Source of the DNA: a virus
Lineage: Duplodnaviria; Heunggongvirae; Uroviricota; Caudoviricetes
DNA length: 9,373 nt
Virus record (IMG/VR): IMGVR_UViG_2563366846_000008
Reading direction: 5' to 3' (one strand)
Shown: positions 1-9,373 of the stretch, one piece after another
Numbering within the stretch: position 1 is the first letter of the stretch
Layout of the letters: the number at the start of each line of letters is the position of its first letter
Notes under the pieces: model-generated
Database searches by the model: none
What the model saw: the letters and a program-made list of their open reading frames with translations, nothing else
What the model was told of the DNA's origin: nothing
Program-made: the position numbers and the translations under genes

Positions 1-750
1 ATGAGACGTGTTTTCTTGTTCACGCTGACGTGTGTTACAACTCTAATGTCTTTCGCTGTAGTTGCTGATAAGGGCGAACGCATGGACTTCGTTGCTGCAA
101 ATCAATGTCGGAGTCAGCCGGATGATGCAAAGCGGATAGAATGTTATGACAAAGCTGTAACTCCAACACGCACTAAAACATTAGAAAAGTTTGACAGCAG
201 GGATCAATGCAGGGAGGAGGCGTGGGAGAAAAAAAGGCTGTCTTGCTATGATCGTTTTTTTTCTCCAACATTCACTAATGCCAAAGTTGACAAAGTACAT
301 GAAGACAGTAGGGATGTTGGGAACTGGAAGGTTGATATAAAAACATCTCCAATCGATGACTCTAAAAATGTTGTTATCTTTGTTAATGGTAATGATTCTT
401 TTAGATCCCCGTTTGGAGACAACATAACCCCAACTCTTTATATTGCGTGTAGGGAAAATAAAACAGAACTGTTTATAGATTGGGATGTATACTTGGGGCT
501 GAACCAAACTACGATGATTCATCGAATAGATAAACAAAAAGCCATAAACAGAGAGTGGTCTATTTCAACAAATACAAAGGCCGTCTTTTATGATGGCAAT
601 GTGATTGATTTTATAAGAAAGTTACAAAATGGTAATCAGCTATTTGCTCAGATAACCCCATATAGTGAAAGCCCGGTGAGCACAACCTTTAATCTCAAAG
701 GTCTTTCTGAAGTTATTAAACCATTACAAGAATCATGTAACTGGAAATAA
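1..750 (+). CDS. Secreted hypothetical protein with N-terminal signal peptide and tandem Cys-pair repeats; A+T-rich cargo gene
   Basis: ORF from ATG at position 1 to TAA at 748-750 (249 aa). N-terminus MRRVFLFTLTCVTTLMSFAVVA looks like a Sec signal peptide. Two copies of a C-x12-C-Y-D motif (QCRSQPDDAKRIECYDK and QCREEAWEKKRLSCYDR). Visibly more A+T-rich than the tail genes. The upstream region is outside the window, so RBS and true start cannot be checked. Confidence 0.7.
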   Translation: MRRVFLFTLTCVTTLMSFAVVADKGERMDFVAANQCRSQPDDAKRIECYDKAVTPTRTKTLEKFDSRDQCREEAWEKKRLSCYDRFFSPTFTNAKVDKVHEDSRDVGNWKVDIKTSPIDDSKNVVIFVNGNDSFRSPFGDNITPTLYIACRENKTELFIDWDVYLGLNQTTMIHRIDKQKAINREWSISTNTKAVFYDGNVIDFIRKLQNGNQLFAQITPYSESPVSTTFNLKGLSEVIKPLQESCNWK

Positions 751-1260: not shown

Positions 1261-1401
1261 TTACTGCTTACACTGTAAGAACGCCGCAAACTCCGCTCCC
1301 CAGAAGCTCATCCGTATTTCACACAGCGAACCGTGCAGCATCCAGATGATGAGGATTGCCGTCACGCAGAACGTGATGGCCGTAAGCGATTTTTGCGACA
1401 T
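1261..1401 (-). CDS. hok: Hok/Gef-family type I toxin (small membrane toxin), not in the supplied ORF track
   Basis: Manual minus-strand translation from the ATG at 1401-1399 to the TAA at 1263-1261 gives 46 aa: MSQKSLTAITFCVTAILIIWMLHGSLCEIRMSFWGAEFAAFLQCKQ. It has one hydrophobic transmembrane stretch followed by SLCEIR...AAF, which matches the Hok-family pattern as I recall it (R1 Hok ...KSLCEIR...EVAAF...; HokA-like ...AAFLACK). RBS AAGGAG about 9 nt upstream. Overlapped by a longer upstream ORF in another frame, as mok overlaps hok. Confidence 0.55.
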   Translation of the reverse strand: MSQKSLTAITFCVTAILIIWMLHGSLCEIRMSFWGAEFAAFLQCKQ

Positions 1402-1895: not shown

Positions 1896-3005
1896 TCACT
1901 CTGTTTCCGCTATCCATTCCGGGATTTTTGCCTCAAGCTCAAGCTGCGTGGTAAAGCCACTGTTATCAATGGTGTGCTCGGCTTTCGCAATAATCCAGTC
2001 CTGATTATCAATCTCGCTTTTAAATCCTGTTACCGTGCCATGCATTTCGGGGTAGAGTTCTGCTCGTCCACGTGCCAGCGTGATGGAGAATGATGCGGCT
2101 CCGCGTTGTAGTTGTTGCCACTTTGCCGCCGCTGCGCGTCTTGCTGCCTGCTCGTTCTGATAAGTCTTGCGTAACACAAACACATTGCCTTCCGCGCCTT
2201 CCATATAATCACCTTCACGGCTGCTGCTTTTCTCCTTTTTGGGCTTGGGCGGTTTGCGGCGTTTCACGCTGACTTTTTTCTTTTTCCCGTAATTAAGATC
2301 AAGCCAGTAAGCGCGTACCCCCGTATACGCTTCGCGGTCAGCAATGCGGAACTGATGGCGATCGCCGCTGCTGCGTGTAATGGCGAACGATGGCAACGGC
2401 TGGCCCTGTGCGTTCACGCCACCGCCGGGCATGATGAATAACAGATTACCGCTTTTTACCGTGGTGATTGCGCCCAGCATTTCCGCCATGCGCGTAAGGA
2501 AGGACATGTCACTTTCTTCGGTCTGGTCGGCGTGGTCGATTTCGATATCCATCAGCATTTCGCTGATTTGCGGTTTCAGACCGTACCGATGAGCGATGGC
2601 GGATACCACACGCTCAACGGTCACATCATGCCAGGACACCTCACGTTTAACGTTAAATTCATCCCGAAAATCTGCGCTTCTGGCTGAAACAGTCAGCCTG
2701 TCCGGCGGTCCTTCGTGAGCGATTTCATCAACAATGTAAGTGCCTTTTTCTGTCAGCGGTTCTCCTTTCCAGCCAATGAGAACCGTCAGGCGCGCGCCCC
2801 GTGGCGGTAGCTGCAACTGACCATCCGCATCATCCAGCGTGATGGTGAGCTGGTCTGCTTCAAATCCCCGGTTGTCGGTCAGTGACAGACTCATCAGGCG
2901 CTCTGCCACGCCGGACAGCGTTTCCCCCTCCGCGAGAATATCAAAATCCGGCATTTTCACGGGGTCTGTGCTCTGACTGAGCAATTGCATGGTGGTGTCG
3001 GTCAT
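1896..3005 (-). CDS. D: Phage tail protein D (gpD, late control gene D / baseplate hub family)
   Basis: Translation carries gpD-like blocks (SLSLTDNRGFEADQL..DDADGQL, SARSADFRDEFNVKREVSWHD, FLTRMAEMLG, a Lys-rich linker KKKKVSVKRRKPPKPKKEK, GFTTQLELE). Start preferred at the ATG at 3005 (MTDTTMQ...), which has a strong SD GGGAGGG 4-5 nt upstream; the in-frame ATG at 3026 has no SD. Confidence 0.9.
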   Translation of the reverse strand: MTDTTMQLLSQSTDPVKMPDFDILAEGETLSGVAERLMSLSLTDNRGFEADQLTITLDDADGQLQLPPRGARLTVLIGWKGEPLTEKGTYIVDEIAHEGPPDRLTVSARSADFRDEFNVKREVSWHDVTVERVVSAIAHRYGLKPQISEMLMDIEIDHADQTEESDMSFLTRMAEMLGAITTVKSGNLLFIMPGGGVNAQGQPLPSFAITRSSGDRHQFRIADREAYTGVRAYWLDLNYGKKKKVSVKRRKPPKPKKEKSSSREGDYMEGAEGNVFVLRKTYQNEQAARRAAAAKWQQLQRGAASFSITLARGRAELYPEMHGTVTGFKSEIDNQDWIIAKAEHTIDNSGFTTQLELEAKIPEWIAETE

Positions 3006-3161
3006 CTTTCCCTCCCTGTGCGGCATGGTCGCATGTGCGTGCGGAGTGGGTTACTGCTTTTTGTTGTCGCCGTGGCGGGAGAACGGCGCAGGGGTGAGAT
3101 TACGCGCGTGGTGGGTGATGATTGTTGCCGAATCATTTAACGGATACAAGGGGCTGAAGCT
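3006..3161. promoter_or_regulatory. Divergent intergenic region between D (-) and FI (+); presumed late promoter region for the sheath operon
   Basis: 156-bp non-coding gap between two divergently oriented genes with strong RBSs on both sides. Contains a GC-rich dyad CGCCGT-N9-ACGGCG (3068-3088). No clean Ogr-type TGT-N12-ACA box was found by eye, so the promoter call is positional inference only. Confidence 0.35.
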
Positions 3162-4346
3162 ATGAGTGAAACTCGTTTTCATGGTGCCCGTGTCACGGAA
3201 AGTACCGACCTGGTAACAGCGATTAATGATGTTGATTCCAGCGTTATCGGTATCGTGGCAACGGCGGATGATGCGGATGCGGAGCTGTTCCCGCTGAACA
3301 AGCCCACACTGCTGACCCGCGTCAATGACGTGCTGGGAAAATGCGGTACTACGGGGACGCTTTATCGTGCGCTTAAGGCTATCGCAGACCAGGTGAGCAC
3401 AAAGGTGATCGTCGTTCGCGTGGCTGAACACAAAAAAGAAGGCGGTAAGACGCAGGATCAACTGGTTATCGGTGGTTCTGAGGATGACGGCAGCTATACG
3501 GGGATGTATGCGCTGCTTGTTGCAGAGCAGGATGAAAGCATCGGATACCGTCCGCGCATTCTGGCTGCGCCGGAGCTGGACACGGAGGCGGTGACAAAAT
3601 CTCTGTGCGTGATTGCAGGTAAACTGCGCGCGTTTGTGTATGCCTCATGTCATGGCTGTGACACGATGGCCGAGGCAATTACCTACCGCCAGAAATTCAA
3701 CGAACGTGAGGTGATGCTCTTATGGCCGGACTTTATCGCCTACAACCCGAAAAGTGGCAAAAACGAAACGTTCCCCGCGCCTGCCTATGCGTGCGGCCTT
3801 CGTGCGTACATTGACCATGAGCAGGGCTGGCACAAATCGCTGTCCAACGTTCCGGTTAAAAATGTGCTGGGGATGTCCAGGCATGTGTTCTGGTCGTTGC
3901 AGGCCGAAGACAGTGATGCCAACAGCCTCAACAACAAAGAAATCACGACCATTATTCGTCGCAACGGGTTCCGCTTCTGGGGCAACCGCACACCGGAAAC
4001 GAACGCCTACATCTTTGAGGTGTATACCCGAACCGCACAGGTGCTGGCTGATTCAATTGCGGAAGCGCAGTTTGAAACCATCGACAGTCCACTGACGCCT
4101 GCGAACGTGAAGGATGTTATCAGTGCCATCAGGGCAAAACTGGATTCACTGGTTACTGCCGGGAAACTGATTGGTGCGGAGTGCTGGTATGACGTGGTGG
4201 ATAACGGCACCACGAATTTACGTCAGGGGCGTGTGCGTATTCGCTACAAATATACGCCTGTTCCCCCGCTGGAAGACATGGAGCTTTACCAGTCGTTTAC
4301 TGATGAATTCTTTGGTCCCGCATTTGCGGTGCTGGGAGGTGCCTGA
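3162..4346 (+). CDS. FI: Contractile tail sheath protein (P2 gpFI family)
   Basis: 394-aa ORF with RBS AAGGGG 8 nt upstream. Conserved sheath blocks (FPLNKPTLLT, KLRAFVYASCHGC, YRQKFNEREVMLLWPDF, HEQGWHKSLSNV, IRRNGFRFWGNRT, YKYTPVPPLEDM) match P2 FI as recalled. Stop TGA overlaps the FII start (TGATG). Confidence 0.95.
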   Translation: MSETRFHGARVTESTDLVTAINDVDSSVIGIVATADDADAELFPLNKPTLLTRVNDVLGKCGTTGTLYRALKAIADQVSTKVIVVRVAEHKKEGGKTQDQLVIGGSEDDGSYTGMYALLVAEQDESIGYRPRILAAPELDTEAVTKSLCVIAGKLRAFVYASCHGCDTMAEAITYRQKFNEREVMLLWPDFIAYNPKSGKNETFPAPAYACGLRAYIDHEQGWHKSLSNVPVKNVLGMSRHVFWSLQAEDSDANSLNNKEITTIIRRNGFRFWGNRTPETNAYIFEVYTRTAQVLADSIAEAQFETIDSPLTPANVKDVISAIRAKLDSLVTAGKLIGAECWYDVVDNGTTNLRQGRVRIRYKYTPVPPLEDMELYQSFTDEFFGPAFAVLGGA

Positions 4347-4858
4347 TGGCTGTACCAAAACATCTTCGCTTTTTTACGTTGTTTGTGGATGGTGAAAACG
4401 AAGTGGGTAAAGTGACATCCGTCACGCCGCCCAAACTGACGCGCAAAACCGACAGCTATCGTGGTGGTGGCATGATGGGGGCAGTAAGTATTGATCTCGG
4501 TCTGGACGACTCCGCACTTGATGCGAGTTTTGTCATGGGGGGAGCTGTTCGTGCGCTGTTCCTTAAATATGGCGGCACGATTGACGGCACGCTGCTGCGT
4601 TTTGCGGGTGAATACTACACCGATGCAGAAAGCGATCTGTATGAAATCGAGATGCGCGGGCGTGTGACGGAAATTGATATGGGGGAAGCCAAACAGGGCG
4701 AAGCCACATCACACACTTACGCTGTCAAAAACACCTACTACAAGCTGAGCGTTAACGATCGCCCGCTGTGGGAAATCGACCTGTTGAACCACATCTACCG
4801 GAAGGACGGCAAGGACATTGTGCCTGACCGCATCCGTTCCGCGCTTGGGCTTGGCTGA
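4346..4858 (+). CDS. FII: Tail tube protein (P2 gpFII family)
   Basis: 170-aa ORF translationally coupled to FI (ATG overlaps the FI TGA; GGGAGG 6 nt upstream). Motifs VTPPKLTRKTDSYRGGGMMGAVSIDLGLDD and LRFAGEY...EIEMRGRVTEIDMGEAKQGE resemble P2 FII. Size and position immediately after the sheath gene fit. Confidence 0.95.
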   Translation: MAVPKHLRFFTLFVDGENEVGKVTSVTPPKLTRKTDSYRGGGMMGAVSIDLGLDDSALDASFVMGGAVRALFLKYGGTIDGTLLRFAGEYYTDAESDLYEIEMRGRVTEIDMGEAKQGEATSHTYAVKNTYYKLSVNDRPLWEIDLLNHIYRKDGKDIVPDRIRSALGLG

Positions 4859-4871
4859 TAAGTAATATGCA

Positions 4872-4890
4872 GGCGGCGCAGTGCGTCGCC
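4872..4890 (+). other. Intergenic stem-loop between tube gene and gene E (possible attenuator or mRNA-stability element)
   Basis: GGCGGCGC (4872-4879) / GCGTCGCC (4883-4890) forms an 8-bp stem with one G-U pair and a 3-nt loop. It is not followed by a T-run, so it is not a canonical intrinsic terminator. Confidence 0.35.
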
Positions 4891-4913
4891 TCTGACTGAA
4901 AAGGAGACAACTG

Positions 4914-5288
4914 ATGAAAGACATCGATACTGAAACCCGGAATAACACCGTGGCGGATGATGTGACGGCAGGTGAGGATATGGCTGTCGAACGTGGCGTA
5001 AAACTGACCCGACCAATTGAGCGTGGTGGCGAAAAAATCACGTATGTGGAGATCACCGGGGCTATTGAACAGGCTGGATCCCTGCGTGGTCTGTCGCTGT
5101 CTGATGTGCTGAATCTGAAAGCGGATACCATGTTCACGCTGTTGCCTCGCGTGACCTCGCCACGACTGGATGAAGTGATGATTAAAAAAATGTCGTCACG
5201 CGATTTTATTCAGTTGTGCGCTGTGGCTGTAAATTTTATGAGCGAGCCAGACTCTGGCGCGAAGAGCGTGCAGGCGACGGCAGCGTAA
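4914..5288 (+). CDS. E: Tail assembly chaperone gpE (zero-frame product)
   Basis: 124-aa ORF with RBS AAGGAG upstream. Lies between tube and tape-measure genes, the conserved position of the tail chaperone. Its 3' part is overlapped by a -1 frame that is open from 5186 to 5452. Confidence 0.85.
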   Translation: MKDIDTETRNNTVADDVTAGEDMAVERGVKLTRPIERGGEKITYVEITGAIEQAGSLRGLSLSDVLNLKADTMFTLLPRVTSPRLDEVMIKKMSSRDFIQLCAVAVNFMSEPDSGAKSVQATAA

Positions 5289-5452
5289 TCACCCTGGTGT
5301 GCTTTGAGCACATCGAAGATCTGGTGGCAGATATCGCCGCCATTTTTAACTGGTCGCCCGCCGAAATCTTCATGATGACGCCCGGCGAAGTGGTTAGCTG
5401 GCGTGAGCGGGCGGCACTTCGCAGCGGGAATGCAGACAATGAAGACTCTTGA
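4914..5452 (+). CDS. E+E': gpE+E' tail chaperone fusion made by programmed -1 ribosomal frameshift
   Basis: The -1 frame relative to E is open from 5186 (after TAA at 5183-5185) to TGA at 5450-5452 and overlaps the start of T. Candidate slip sites inside the overlap are the A7 run at 5184-5190 and the heptamer A_AAT_TTT at 5231-5237. The chaperone frameshift between tube and tape-measure genes is conserved in long-tailed phages and known in P2 E/E'. The exact slip site is not determined. Confidence 0.6.
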
Positions 5453-8246
5453 TATCCGGGTCGCTTTCAGCGCCGTTGACAGGCTGACCCGGCCTGCCGA
5501 AAACGCCCGCCGCCTGATGGGGCAGTTTGGTGACTCCATCCAGCGAACGCAGGGGGCGATCAAAAATCTCGAGCGTCAGGCGCGATCATTTGAGCGCGCC
5601 CGCGACGCTGTCAGTAAAGCGGATGCGGGTATCGTGAAAGCACGACGCCAGCTTAACGCCCTTAATCAGTTACAACGCACGGGTACAGTGCTCAGCGAAA
5701 AACAACAAAAGCTGATGCAGCAGTTAAGCACCCGGCTTGAACGCCTGAATGAATCGCGCACACGGGAAATTCAGAAAATGCGGGAGCTTGGCGGAGAGCT
5801 GAAACGCCACGGCATTTCCCTGACAGGCAGCGATAACACCATCCAGCAGGCCATCAGACGCACCGAACAGTACAACAACCAGCTTGAACGTGAACGGCAG
5901 GCGCTTGCGCGTGTAACGCGGGCGCGTGAGCGGTATTCGCGCACGCAGGAAACAGCGGGAAAACTGAAAACAGGTGGTGCGCTGGCAATTGGTGCGGCAG
6001 CGGCTGGCGGCTATGCTGCCGGGCGTTTTTTGCAGCCCGCTATCGGGTTCGGGAAAGAGATGTCCCGCGTTCAGGCGCTGACGCGAATCGACCAGAACAG
6101 TCCACAGTTTAAGGCGCTGCGTGAACAGGCGTTAAAACTTGGCTCTGAAACGCAGTTCACCGCAGGCGATGCCGCCAGTGGGCAGGCATTTCTGGCAATG
6201 GCTGGTTTTACTCCGCAGGCCATTCAGGCTGCGCTCCCTGGCGTACTGAGCATGGCAACGGCTGGCGGTATGGACCTCGGCGAGACGGCGGATATTGGCT
6301 CAAATATTCTGACGCAGTTCGGTCTTTCTGCTGACCAGATGGACCGGGTCGGCGACACACTCACTGCAGCGTTTACCCGTACCAACACTGACCTTCGCGC
6401 ACTGGGCGAAACCATGAAATATGCAGGCCCGGTGGCAGGTAAGCTGGGAATATCGCTGGAGCAGGCCGCAGCGATGGCGGGCGTGCTGGCGAATATGGGG
6501 ATCAGGGGGAGTGATGCTGGCACAGCGTTGCGTAAAAGCCTTGCCAATCTGTCATCGCCGCCAAAGGCGGCAGCAGAAGCTCTGAAAGAGCTGGGAGTGG
6601 CTGTCTCTGATGCGAACGGCAAAATGCGCCCGATGGAGGATGTGCTGGTCGACCTTTATAAAGCCACCCGCAAATACGGGGAAGTTGACCGGGTATCCTT
6701 CTTTAAGGACATCGCCGGAGAAGAGGCTTTCACATCATTTATGGCCCTCGTTGATGCGGCGGGTAACGGCTCCTTACCCAAACTGAGAAAAGAACTTGAG
6801 GGCGCACGCGGTGAGGCTGAACGCACGGCAAAAGTTATGGCCGACAACCTTGATGGCGATCTGAAATCACTCGGCAGTGCATGGGAAGGGTTGCGCATCC
6901 GCATTGCAGATCTGATTGATGGTCCGCTGCGTTCTGTCACGCAGTGGCTCACGCGGGTGGTCTCAAAAGTGACGGCACTGGCGCAGGCCCATCCGGCACT
7001 GACACGCCAGTTACTGATAGCAGGCGGTGCGTTACTGGCAATGACTGCAACGATTGGCTCGTTGTCGCTGGTTATTGGGGTGCTTTACGGGAAACTGGCC
7101 ACCTTGCGTCTTGGTTTCGACATTCTTACCCGGTCAATGAATGTCGTCAGGGTGTTGCCTGCGCTGTGGGGAATGGTGACGGGTTCTGTTTCTTTGCTGG
7201 GAGGCGCTATCGGGGCGCTGTTCAGTCCGGTTGGTCTTATCGTGGCTGCGCTTGCCGGAGCTGCCGTTCTTATCTGGAAATACTGGGATCCCATCAGGGC
7301 ATTTTTTGCCGGGGTGTTCAGCGGGATTATGGAAAGGCTGACCCCGTTGCGCGAAACCTTTGAACGGTTTGGTCCTGTTTTTGACGCAATCGGAAGCGGG
7401 ATAAGCCAGGTGTTTAACTGGTTTAAATCGCTGCTGTCACCGATGGAGTCCAGCAAGGAAACGCTGGATAAATGTACCAGTGCTGGCGAGATATTCGGTA
7501 ACGTTCTTGGTGGCGCGCTACAGCTTGTTCTGACGCCTGCAAAAATGTTGCTGGATACGCTGGCGTGGATACTTGAAAAACTCGGTGTGCTTCCGGATGA
7601 AGCGGAAAGGGCGAGAAAGAAAATCGAAGACGCACAGCGTGCGGCCATTCTTCAGGACAAGGTTGCTCTGTTTCAGGGAGACATTGCGAAAATCAATCCG
7701 CCGAAGTCCGCGGAAAATGGCAATGGCACCGGAGGCGATAACCCCAAAGATAACAAACCGCTCACAGACAGCAATACCGGCACGCTACGCAGACTCAGCA
7801 AAATTGCTGATAACACAGGTAAGCTGGTTGATGAGACAAAAAAACGTATTGGCCCCGGCGATATTGTCTTTAAGAACCTGCCCCGCGCACTTGCTGTTCG
7901 TGGGGAGTGGCAGGAGCGGAAGATTGCGCAGGTCAGTAAACCTGCTTCCGCAATCAACATCACACCCGTGGTCCCGACTCCGCTGCCTCCGGCGCTGGTC
8001 CCTGTTGTTGCGGCCAGCTCCCGCCCGGTGGCGGAGGCCATACGATCGCCAGTGGCATCAGTTCCTGCAACTTCCCGTAACCGGGAGCCTGTTGCCTCCG
8101 GATTTGGCGGTGAAATTCATGTTCATCTGCATAACGTTGTTACGCAGAATCCCCGCGAACTGGCGAAACTGGTCGGTGAAATGGTCAGGGCAGAGACGGA
8201 ACGGCGCACCCGTGCCGGACGTGGCAGTTTTTACGATAAAGATTGA
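5439..8246 (+). CDS. T: Tail tape measure protein (P2 gpT family)
   Basis: Long ORF of about 935 aa from the preferred ATG at 5439 (GGGA about 9 nt upstream); alternative in-frame starts at 5430 and 5403. Coiled-coil-like N-terminal third, central tape-measure core region, two long hydrophobic segments (LIAGGALLAMTATIGSLSLVIGVLYG and GAIGALFSPVGLIVAALAGAAVLIW) and a Pro-rich C-terminal region. Start overlaps the end of E'. Confidence 0.9.
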   Translation: MKTLDIRVAFSAVDRLTRPAENARRLMGQFGDSIQRTQGAIKNLERQARSFERARDAVSKADAGIVKARRQLNALNQLQRTGTVLSEKQQKLMQQLSTRLERLNESRTREIQKMRELGGELKRHGISLTGSDNTIQQAIRRTEQYNNQLERERQALARVTRARERYSRTQETAGKLKTGGALAIGAAAAGGYAAGRFLQPAIGFGKEMSRVQALTRIDQNSPQFKALREQALKLGSETQFTAGDAASGQAFLAMAGFTPQAIQAALPGVLSMATAGGMDLGETADIGSNILTQFGLSADQMDRVGDTLTAAFTRTNTDLRALGETMKYAGPVAGKLGISLEQAAAMAGVLANMGIRGSDAGTALRKSLANLSSPPKAAAEALKELGVAVSDANGKMRPMEDVLVDLYKATRKYGEVDRVSFFKDIAGEEAFTSFMALVDAAGNGSLPKLRKELEGARGEAERTAKVMADNLDGDLKSLGSAWEGLRIRIADLIDGPLRSVTQWLTRVVSKVTALAQAHPALTRQLLIAGGALLAMTATIGSLSLVIGVLYGKLATLRLGFDILTRSMNVVRVLPALWGMVTGSVSLLGGAIGALFSPVGLIVAALAGAAVLIWKYWDPIRAFFAGVFSGIMERLTPLRETFERFGPVFDAIGSGISQVFNWFKSLLSPMESSKETLDKCTSAGEIFGNVLGGALQLVLTPAKMLLDTLAWILEKLGVLPDEAERARKKIEDAQRAAILQDKVALFQGDIAKINPPKSAENGNGTGGDNPKDNKPLTDSNTGTLRRLSKIADNTGKLVDETKKRIGPGDIVFKNLPRALAVRGEWQERKIAQVSKPASAINITPVVPTPLPPALVPVVAASSRPVAEAIRSPVASVPATSRNREPVASGFGGEIHVHLHNVVTQNPRELAKLVGEMVRAETERRTRAGRGSFYDKD

Positions 8247-8258
8247 GGAGTCATGGTT

Positions 8259-8747
8259 ATGATGATGATCTACGGCATGTTTGTTTTTGAGCTGCGCACA
8301 CTGCCGCATCAGCAGTTACAGCAAAACAAAAGCTGGCGGCATGTGAAAAATGAACGCGTTAACCGTTCAGCAAGCTGGCAGTATATCGGTGCAGGTGATG
8401 ATCGCATCGTGCTTTCCGGCGTGCTTTATCCTGAAATTACAGGTGGCGAAGTGTCGCTTTCGTTGCTGACCACGCAGGCATATACAGGACGCCCCTGGCC
8501 TCTGATTGATGGTGTCGGGCAGATTTACGGCATGTATGTACTGACTGAAACGAATACGACCCGTTCCGAGTTTGATCGCTACGGTAAGGCGAAAAAGATA
8601 GAATTTTCACTGACTCTTGAACGCTGTGATGAGGATTTGCGGGAGCGCCTGCAATCCTCATCGTTCAGTGATATGCTGTCCGGCTTCAAAGATAAGGTCA
8701 CATCATCCCTTAACAGCGCGGCCAGCTCCGTTAAAGGGCTGTTTTGA
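8259..8747 (+). CDS. U: Tail protein U (P2 gpU family)
   Basis: About 162 aa from the ATG at 8259 (SD GAGGAG ends at 8250; in-frame ATGs at 8253, 8262 and 8265 are alternatives). Motifs FVFELRTLPHQQLQ, WRHVKNERV, GRPWPLIDGVGQIYGMYVLTE and KIEFSLTLER resemble P2 gpU. Directly follows T. Confidence 0.9.
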   Translation: MMMIYGMFVFELRTLPHQQLQQNKSWRHVKNERVNRSASWQYIGAGDDRIVLSGVLYPEITGGEVSLSLLTTQAYTGRPWPLIDGVGQIYGMYVLTETNTTRSEFDRYGKAKKIEFSLTLERCDEDLRERLQSSSFSDMLSGFKDKVTSSLNSAASSVKGLF

Positions 8748-8754
8748 TTAACGC

Positions 8755-8784
8755 AAAACCGCTAATGGTCAGATTAGCGGTTTT
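8755..8784. terminator. Intrinsic terminator of the tail operon; overlaps the invertase stop codon
   Basis: Perfect 12-bp inverted repeat AAAACCGCTAAT (8755-8766) / ATTAGCGGTTTT (8773-8784) with a 6-nt loop. On the + strand the stem ends in TTTT followed by CATTTTCC. It sits 8 nt after the U stop. The minus-strand invertase stop (plus-strand TTA at 8774-8776) lies inside the right arm. Confidence 0.55.
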
Positions 8785-9373
8785 CATTTTCCTGAGTCTG
8801 CCTGGTTGTTTCTTCAGCCTGTATATCGCCTACAGGGTGATAACGATAAATCGTCGATATGCCGATGTCGTAAATGATCGCCAGTTGTTTCCTGTCATGA
8901 CCGTTTTTAATCAGCCTCGCTATTTGCTCGTGTTGTTCTTTTGTCAACTTCGGGCGACGTCCGCCAATGCGTCCTTGTGCGCGTGCTGCTGCCAGCCCGG
9001 CCAGTGTACGCTCTACAATTAATTCACGTTCCATTTCGGCTAAAGCCCCCATGACGTGAAAAAAGAAACGCCCCATGGGTGTTGATGTGTCAATGCTGTC
9101 CGTCAGACTACGGAAATTAACACCTTTTTCCCGCAATTCCTCAATAAGCGTGATCAGGTGTTTCATACTTCTGCCCAGTCTGTCCAGCTTCCAGACAACC
9201 AGCGTATCTCCTTCTGATAGCGTTCTGAGCAGTTTTTTCAATCCCGGTCTGGCTGATTTCGTTCCGCTGATTTTATCTTCAAAAATCAGTTCACATCCTG
9301 CGCAGTTCAGTGCATTGCGTTGTAAATCCGTGTTTTGGTCATTTGTTGACACACGAATATAGCCAATTTGCAT
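8774..9373 (-). CDS. Serine DNA invertase of the Hin/Gin/Cin/Pin family
   Basis: 199-aa ORF starting exactly at the last base of the window. N-terminal catalytic motif IGYIRVSTNDQNTDLQ (catalytic Ser) and conserved blocks GDTLVVWKLDRLGRS, DSIDTSTPMGRFFFHVMGALAEMERELIVERT and GRIGGRRPKLT, with a C-terminal helix-turn-helix region. As recalled it is closest to Pin of e14 and Gin of Mu. Confidence 0.92.
   Translation of the reverse strand: MQIGYIRVSTNDQNTDLQRNALNCAGCELIFEDKISGTKSARPGLKKLLRTLSEGDTLVVWKLDRLGRSMKHLITLIEELREKGVNFRSLTDSIDTSTPMGRFFFHVMGALAEMERELIVERTLAGLAAARAQGRIGGRRPKLTKEQHEQIARLIKNGHDRKQLAIIYDIGISTIYRYHPVGDIQAEETTRQTQENENR

Follow-up and report, generated by a model that had tools for sequence, protein, structure and literature searches.

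The 9,373-nucleotide stretch of caudovirus DNA in IMG/VR record IMGVR_UViG_2563366846_000008 (referred to at its full length as the window) ends on a gene for a small serine recombinase, and the question raised by this locus is which DNA the enzyme rearranges. Invertase-driven switching of tail fibres has been known since Mu, P1 and e14, and an earlier note on this DNA, made from the sequence alone, had predicted an invertible tail-fibre segment just outside the window. Our analysis makes it very probable that the gene encodes an intact invertase of the Fis-dependent type, closest to Pin of e14, that is carried by a P88-like prophage of the P2 family and drives the switching of its tail fibre. 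The gene and its domains were delimited as follows.

8774..9373, minus strand: DNA invertase gene (199 amino acids, ATG start), identified as an open reading frame (ORF) and by Pfam, PHROGs, PDB and alignment.
8969..9367, minus strand: catalytic domain (Resolvase, PF00239), residues 3 to 135, Pfam E = 1.5e-51.
8834..8962, minus strand: C-terminal helix-turn-helix (HTH) domain (HTH_7, PF02796), residues 138 to 180, Pfam E = 1.4e-12.

The ORF list placed the initiation codon in the last three bases of the window (9371-9373), so that the ORF is complete and ends exactly at the window edge, as the earlier note had it. Assignment to the Pin/Gin family, also proposed there, was borne out by the comparisons. 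PHROGs placed the protein in phrog_125 ("DNA invertase") with an E value of 1e-98, and alignment gave identities of 82% with PinE of e14, 81.5% with the enzyme of P88, 79.5% with that of Fels-2, 74% with Cin and 71% with Gin of D108. Among solved structures, the best matches were those of Gin (4m6f and 3uj3, E~1e-91); in the same search, gamma-delta resolvase was matched at 1e-31 (gamma-delta/Tn3 range, 1e-26 to 1e-31) and TP901 integrase at 7e-14, and the HTH domain matched the DNA-binding domain of Hin (1hcr) at 1.6e-11. The nucleophile Ser9 (codon TCA at 9347-9349) lies inside the motif YIRVSTNDQ, which aligned with Gin, Cin, Pin and Hin, and the motif of the oligomerisation helix, FFFHVMGALAEMERE, is of the wild type and intact. 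The protein thus combines a serine-recombinase catalytic domain, a serine at about position 9 or 10 and a C-terminal HTH within about 180 to 200 residues, and it groups with the invertases rather than with the resolvases or the large serine integrases. The exact 199-residue sequence is indexed in 7224 blocks of public assemblies, indicating that the ORF is not a chance feature. Positions 8774-9373 are an intact, ordinary DNA invertase gene of the Pin/Gin family, the subfamily of small serine recombinases that includes Pin, Gin, Cin and Hin. The HTH is followed by an acidic, polar tail of 19 residues (181 to 199, window 8777-8833, ..VGDIQAEETTRQTQENENR), about 15 residues longer than the corresponding tail of Pin or Cin.

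Since the window stops at the initiation codon, the DNA beyond it was reached by way of the tape-measure protein of the window, which pointed to scaffold KB732282.1 (assembly GCA_000350745.1); the identical protein also occurs in runs SRR652398 and SRR639948. This source scaffold reproduces the window letter for letter at 4563-13935, and the features that lie outside the window are given below in window-equivalent coordinates taken from it.

9428-9453 (55-80 nt past the window end): 26-bp pix/gix-like site TTCCCCCAAACCAACGTTTTCGTCTT, that is, TTCCCCCAAACC-AA-CGTTTTCGTCTT when read towards the invertase.
From 9436, plus strand: silent tail-fibre Collar cassette, Pfam E = 4.4e-17.
9639-12393 (scaffold 14201-16955): gap of 2755 Ns over the invertible region.
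12417-12442, inside the constant part of gene H (minus strand): inverted second site TTCCCCCAAACCAAGGTAATCAAGAA.

A spacer of 54 nt containing a ribosome-binding site, AAAGAGGA, separates the ATG of the invertase from the first site, which resembles pixL (TTCTCCCAAACCAACGTTTATGAAAA), gix (TTCCTGTAAACCGAGGTTTTAGATAA) and hixL (TTCTTGAAAACCAAGGTTTTTGATAA). The second site, inverted, reads TTCCCCCAAACC-AA-GGTAATCAAGAA. Two 26-bp imperfect dyads with the same 2-bp core therefore flank a segment in inverted orientation, both of them outside the window. Within the 265 bases that separate the window end from the gap, an ORF fragment with a phage tail Collar domain (NVGLGEGSALPVGVPVPWPTATPPAGWLKCDG...) starts at the first site and runs away from the invertase. 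The constant part of H, with Phage_tail_fib and Phage_fiber_2 domains, follows immediately after the gap in the opposite direction of transcription. This constant part ends ...DYLGLGEGSALPVG at the second site and the silent cassette begins NVGLGEGSALPVGVPVPW... in the opposite orientation, the junction GLGEGSALPVG being common to both. Crossover thus falls inside the fibre gene, where alternative C termini can be fused in frame to the constant N terminus. The search for inverted gix/hix-like sites around fibre fragments that the earlier note had proposed was successful in this scaffold, and the predicted invertible segment is present outside the window, except that it starts 55 nt beyond the edge rather than at 9374.

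Only the two outermost sites are visible in the source scaffold, and about three more could fit into the gap. In other runs, two independent short-read contigs break off 89 nt beyond the ATG, having entered the repeated site/cassette part by about 30 nt. We attribute these contig ends and the scaffold gap to repeated or heterogeneous cassettes, at which a de Bruijn assembler is expected to break; they are assembly artefacts typical of such cassettes.

Inversion in this type of prophage has been demonstrated by others. Paired-end sequencing revealed two overlapping inversions in a P2-like prophage of enteropathogenic Escherichia coli (EPEC) E2348/69 (Goldberg et al. 2014, PMC4272514), four variants coexisting in clonal cultures, as validated by polymerase chain reaction (PMC4272514). 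The inversions were located at NC_011601.1 1891695-1893703 and 1892127-1893703 (Table S1, PMC4272514). In the E2348/69 locus analysed here (L001), two of the published endpoints coincide to the base with outer ends of sites that we found (1893703 with position 13234 and 1892127 with position 14810), and endpoint 1891695 maps to position 15242, inside a third site at 15229-15249. The shared endpoint, 1893703, corresponds to the first site of the source scaffold and is 60 bp from the ATG of the invertase gene in E2348/69. The invertase of that strain differs from the enzyme of the window by E197K only, and the DNA is 99.2% identical over the end of T, U and the invertase gene. This sole difference falls within the C-terminal tail of residues 181 to 199. 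PacBio sequencing provided evidence for the same kind of switching in prophages of EC958 (Forde et al., PMC4134206), and the site of EC958 Phi2 (PMC4134206) has the half-site GGTTTGGGGGAA, as in the window prophage.

Ten long loci (L003 to L012) were taken from those listed for the identical invertase and scanned for sites. Tail-fibre cassette DNA was present on the 5' side of the invertase gene in 10/10 loci, and eight had an intact layout comprising H, a single tail-fibre assembly gene (203 amino acids) and Collar cassettes (142 to 177 amino acids) facing either way. Two cassettes and two chaperones, the classical arrangement, are present in L011, and L004 is shortened by insertion of an insertion sequence (IS). 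Each of the ten loci contained 2 to 8 sites (5 in L006 and in L012, 8 in L008), all with a central AA; E2348/69 has 3. Sites on the H side of the assembly gene point one way and those on the invertase side the opposite way. Comparison of L006 with L012 revealed collinear flanks and an inverted segment of 2561 bp, 99.84% identical, that ends at two sites, and further permutations were seen between other pairs of loci. Inversion is thus seen among genomes with an identical enzyme (L006/L012) and in one with a one-residue-different enzyme (E2348/69). In this type of prophage, the switch often has several sites and is not always a simple two-site one.

Two features of these arrays were recorded besides. 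In E2348/69 (L001 14809-14812) and at the internal sites of L003 to L012, a cassette ends in a stop codon (TGA in ..GCATGAAAACGTTGG..) that is part of the outer half of the following site, in a frame other than that read after fusion (..AAC GTT GGT TTG GGG GAA..). Cassettes are therefore packed head to tail, without a spacer. The single assembly gene always lies between opposing site arrays (L001, L003, L005 to L010 and L012), so that every inversion must flip it.

The proposed mechanism is that of the Fis-dependent invertases. Dimers of the invertase would bind 26-bp crossover sites, one of them located 55-80 nt upstream of the invertase ATG and the other or others, in opposite orientation, at the 5' boundary of Collar cassettes and where the constant part of H stops. 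Two inverted sites and a Fis-bound enhancer in the 5' coding region of the invertase gene would then assemble into an invertasome on supercoiled DNA. A staggered cut at the common central AA, followed by subunit rotation and religation, would flip the intervening DNA and thereby fuse a different C-terminal cassette in frame to H (...GLGEGSALPVG...). The new H fusion would change the receptor specificity of the progeny phage. The enzyme is presumably active in this strain, and its action probably affects host range.

The enhancer required by this scheme had been expected in the 5' coding region (about 9250-9373), and a candidate was indeed located there by homology to the cin and hin enhancers.

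9289..9351, minus strand: predicted recombinational enhancer (sis), gene nt 23-85.
9337..9351, minus strand: Fis-like core I, TGTCAACAAATGACC, gene nt 23-37, matching TGTCAACAATTGACC of hin at 14/15 positions.
9289..9303, minus strand: Fis-like core II, GCGCAGGATGTGAAC, gene nt 71-85, fitting GNNYRNNNNNYRNNC, identical to the core of Fels-2 and aligned with GTGCAAATTGTGACC of hin.

In the P1 record, the enhancer of Cin is given as cin nt 19-90, to which window 9284-9355 is homologous. Over this stretch, the window gene is identical to pinE at 62/72 positions, to cin at 58/72 and to hin at 55/72, each value exceeding that for the first 400 nt. The hin gene used (from S. enterica subsp. diarizonae) was retrieved with a degenerate pattern derived from the protein; it has TGTCAACAATTGACC and GTGCAAATTGTGACC at the same places as cores I and II, and between them ATTTA and TAATG, where the window has ATTTA and CAATG. 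Both the ATTTA and the TAATG elements have been mentioned for the hin enhancer, which is described as a 65-bp element bounded by two Fis sites, some 100 bp from hixL (PMC3798978). In the window, the cores are 48 bp apart (centre to centre) and the element spans 63 bp. Placing core I at gene nt 22-36, with G...C ends, was rejected, since it gives a 49-bp spacing and a poor fit to the inner consensus; at nt 23-37, the core agrees with YR...YR and the spacing is 48 bp. Measured between centres, core I lies 96.5 bp from the crossover site in the window gene, D108 gin, e14 pin, Fels-2 and P88, despite unrelated spacers, and 106.5 bp in hin, that is, 10 bp or one helical turn more. Among 11 invertase genes, synonymous divergence was 0.46 in codons 7-30 versus 0.61 in the remainder of the gene, with a minimum of 0.42 for 24-codon windows starting at codons 8-9. 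Together, homology, spacing and reduced synonymous change support a putative enhancer at 9289-9351, and the enzyme would accordingly belong among those that depend on Fis.

The locus was compared with known systems. Pin of e14 is the closest characterised enzyme (82%), with a site upstream of the ATG that has the same half-site and AA core (TTCTCCCAAACCAACGTTTATGAAAA versus TTCCCCCAAACCAACGTTTTCGTCTT) and the same 96.5-bp distance between site and enhancer; C termini of the tail fibre are switched in both systems. However, e14 contains two each of sites, cassettes and assembly genes, whereas as many as 8 sites accompany a single assembly gene in relatives of the window prophage, and the C-terminal tail of the window enzyme is 15 residues longer than that of Pin. 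The E2348/69 locus is essentially the same element, with the same gene order and endpoints that coincide with the sites found here, although it is integrated next to ihfA/pheST and the window prophage next to tamAB-ytfP. In the Gin system of Mu and D108, as here, the site adjoins the invertase gene at its 5' end, the enhancer is part of the 5' coding sequence and a tail fibre is switched (Sv/U); the enzymes are 71% identical. In Salmonella, too, hixL precedes hin and the enhancer is located early in the coding sequence (core I 14/15, ATTTA kept), but Hin controls a flagellin promoter, not a tail fibre, and its site-enhancer distance is 10 bp longer than here. Cin of P1 (74% identity) has a homologous enhancer at cin nt 19-90; in contrast, cixL overlaps the 3' end of cin, which points into the C segment, whereas here the site is 5' and the gene points away from the segment. 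The generalisation that the crossover site lies at the 5' end of the invertase gene therefore applies to Mu/D108, e14, Fels-2 and hin but not to P1, which had been cited for it. As a side observation, the P1-like phage vB_EcoM-673R5 carries at 301-872 an invertase gene with 91.8% DNA identity to that of the window; its annotation as two ORFs, "Hin2" and "Hin1", suggests a frameshifted copy.

Phage P88 has its whole gene order in common with the window prophage but combines it with an enzyme of the Gin type and a gix-type site whose core is GA (TTCCTGTAAACCGAGGTTTTAGATAA), versus the Pin-type enzyme and AA-core site of the window prophage (8839-8948 of the P88 record, L002, compared with 13936-14045 of the source scaffold). 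The invertase-plus-site module has thus been swapped within one phage lineage. The classical serine-invertase system in which a tail-fibre gene contains many crossover sites is reportedly Min of p15B (Sandmeier et al.; also a review cited in PMC4134206). Systems of that type have at least 3 sites; the relatives have 2 to 8, and the source shows the two outermost with the gap between them. A shufflon in the strict sense (R64 type, with tyrosine recombinase Rci, sfx sites and pilV) was considered and rejected, the locus having a serine recombinase and a tail-fibre target; "shufflon" was applied to the E2348/69 locus by analogy only (PMC4272514).

The remainder of the window bears on the position of the invertase gene beside U. 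From left to right, the window contains a VasI-like gene, a TM2-domain gene, a hok/gef-like ORF, ogr and D (both on the minus strand), FI, FII, E/E', T and U (plus strand) and the invertase gene (minus strand).

1261-1401, minus strand: hok/gef-family ORF of 46 amino acids, flanked by ogr and the TM2-domain gene close to the end of the prophage.
1896-3026, minus strand: D.
3162-8747, plus strand: FI-FII-E-E'-T-U block.
8253-8747, plus strand: homologue of P2 gpU (Pfam PF06995, 5.5e-39).
8755..8784, unstranded: hairpin with a 12-bp stem, AAAACCGCTAATGGTCAGATTAGCGGTTTT, a terminator-like match (scaffold 13317-13346).

In the order of the Fels-2 and P2 type, H, the invertible segment, the invertase gene, FI, FII, E, T, U and D are all on one strand. 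By comparison, the FI-U block of the window is flipped in place between the invertase gene and D, and this is why the invertase gene adjoins U. The order D (minus), FI-U (plus), invertase (minus), fibre is also that of phage P88 and of the E2348/69 prophage. Adjacency of the end of T, U and the invertase gene was found in P88 and six other distinct phage genomes (11 records), and the same junction in 619 complete E. coli genomes; at least 80% of the window was present in one place in 1035 E. coli genomes, 14 of the 15 best matches being single unbroken alignments. The hairpin occupies the 26 nt that separate U from the invertase gene, which converge, overlaps the stop codon of the latter and is likely to be a bidirectional terminator. 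With the tamA-tamB-ytfP genes upstream in the source scaffold, the prophage is very probably a P88-like (Xuanwuvirus-type) member of the P2 family integrated next to tamAB-ytfP in an Escherichia-type chromosome. At the left end, the window starts on the ATG of the VasI-like gene (1-750, plus strand) as it ends on that of the invertase gene, and it was evidently cut at gene boundaries. Bases 1-822 had no match beside this prophage type in complete E. coli genomes, and an Rfam scan of the whole window detected no family above threshold, Sok included.

Several points weigh against tail-fibre switching by a working, Fis-dependent invertase. A scan of the region 5' to the invertase gene in the source scaffold revealed no sigma-70 consensus promoter between the crossover site and the ATG, and 2755 bases of the invertible region of the source are Ns that hide cassette content, the number of sites and both orientations. 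Among the nine assemblies with a single assembly gene, the latter is antisense to H in seven, so that some permutations may not yield a functional fibre. Finally, core I begins with T where the consensus has G, the centre of core II contains G/C, and Fis binding is read from homology. The gene might accordingly be an intact but idle relic in a fibre region frozen by mutated sites, lack of expression or decay of the prophage, a view favoured by the unassembled invertible region, by the promoter scan and by clear decay of some relatives, such as the IS-interrupted L004. We consider it improbable, since the ORF is full length and its product identical to that in thousands of assemblies, both outer sites are intact with matching AA cores, a one-residue variant inverts DNA at high frequency in E2348/69 and the assembly breaks exactly at the repeat. 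It is also conceivable that the invertase works without a Fis-bound enhancer, 5' conservation merely reflecting the protein and translation signals. Indeed, this stretch of the gene specifies the best-conserved part of the protein, catalytic Ser9 included, the Fis consensus is matched by degenerate sequences (by our own calculation, a sequence the size of the window should contain the paired pattern about once by chance) and the drop in synonymous divergence (0.46 versus 0.61) is modest. Homology to the annotated P1 cin enhancer and to the hin stretch, the 48-bp separation of the cores and a distance between the site and core I that is identical in five systems with unrelated spacers, and exactly 10 bp more in hin, make this unlikely. 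In addition, the wild-type residues His106, which corresponds to Hin H107Y, and Met114 are kept at positions of Fis-independent mutations. Met114 is the position of the Gin mutation M114V; the solved Gin chain 4m6f reads AEVERE where the window protein reads AEMERE.

The two other explanations concern the target of the enzyme. Its Resolvase and HTH_7 domains are common to the Tn3/gamma-delta resolvases, and the gene could in principle have been the resolvase of an adjacent transposon, an outcome that the earlier note had named as fatal to its prediction, together with flanks devoid of sites and fibre genes. Neither was encountered. Similarity is far higher to Gin (E~1e-91) than to gamma-delta resolvase (1e-31), with 71 to 82% identity to invertases; the 22.8-kb source locus contains no transposase, the neighbours being gpU and tail-fibre DNA; and the sites are single 26-bp inverted dyads, not directly repeated, multi-subsite res. 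Context and similarity therefore exclude the gene from the Tn3/gamma-delta type, and we assign practically no probability to this explanation. Alternatively, the invertase may flip, or may once have flipped, the 5.7-kb FI-FII-E-T-U block as a second invertible segment, this block being inverted between the invertase gene and D relative to P2 and Fels-2, with one end abutting the invertase gene. However, searches of the window for crossover-like sites returned no match to the specific 21-mer at up to 3 mismatches and none to the generic core AAACCNNSGTTT at up to 1 mismatch, and no inverted repeat pairs the ends of the block (3027-3161 and 8748-8773). The invertase gene meets the block with its 3' end rather than with its site-bearing end, and the block has the same orientation in P88, in six other phage genomes and in the 1035 E. 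coli genomes. A second invertible segment is thus very improbable. This constancy in phages and in more than 1000 E. coli prophages, together with the lack of sites or repeats at the ends, indicates that the flip is an old, fixed trait of the P88-like lineage, with no evidence that the invertase caused it. The earlier note had tied the position of the invertase gene next to U to an inversion; the flipped block accounts for this position, as a fixed trait of the lineage.

The preferred reading, switching of the H tail fibre by the Pin-like invertase, is a correct prediction of known biology, and the element is in effect one that has already been studied. It adds little to that biology, because the same type of prophage inverts in EPEC E2348/69 (PMC4272514) and a similar one in EC958 (PMC4134206). 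Features outside the window were nonetheless named correctly from the sequence alone. The practical value lies in annotation and assembly: the gap in the source scaffold and contigs that end about 90 nt past the invertase gene are explained, and whatever cassette order and orientation an assembly of the invertible region shows should be read as a single snapshot from a mixed population. Smaller observations are the 96.5-bp spacing between site and enhancer, which is kept across unrelated spacers, and the single assembly gene that flips. By analogy with the relatives, the unassembled 2.75 kb may hold a Min-like array of multiple Collar cassettes with a single assembly gene between opposing site arrays, flipping at each inversion, although we regard this as doubtful. 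In the literature examined, we found no description of a single flipping assembly gene in fibre switches driven by serine invertases. If such an array is present, only some permutations would co-express the fibre and its chaperone, and the prophage would switch between "chaperoned" and "unchaperoned" fibres in addition to switching receptor specificity.

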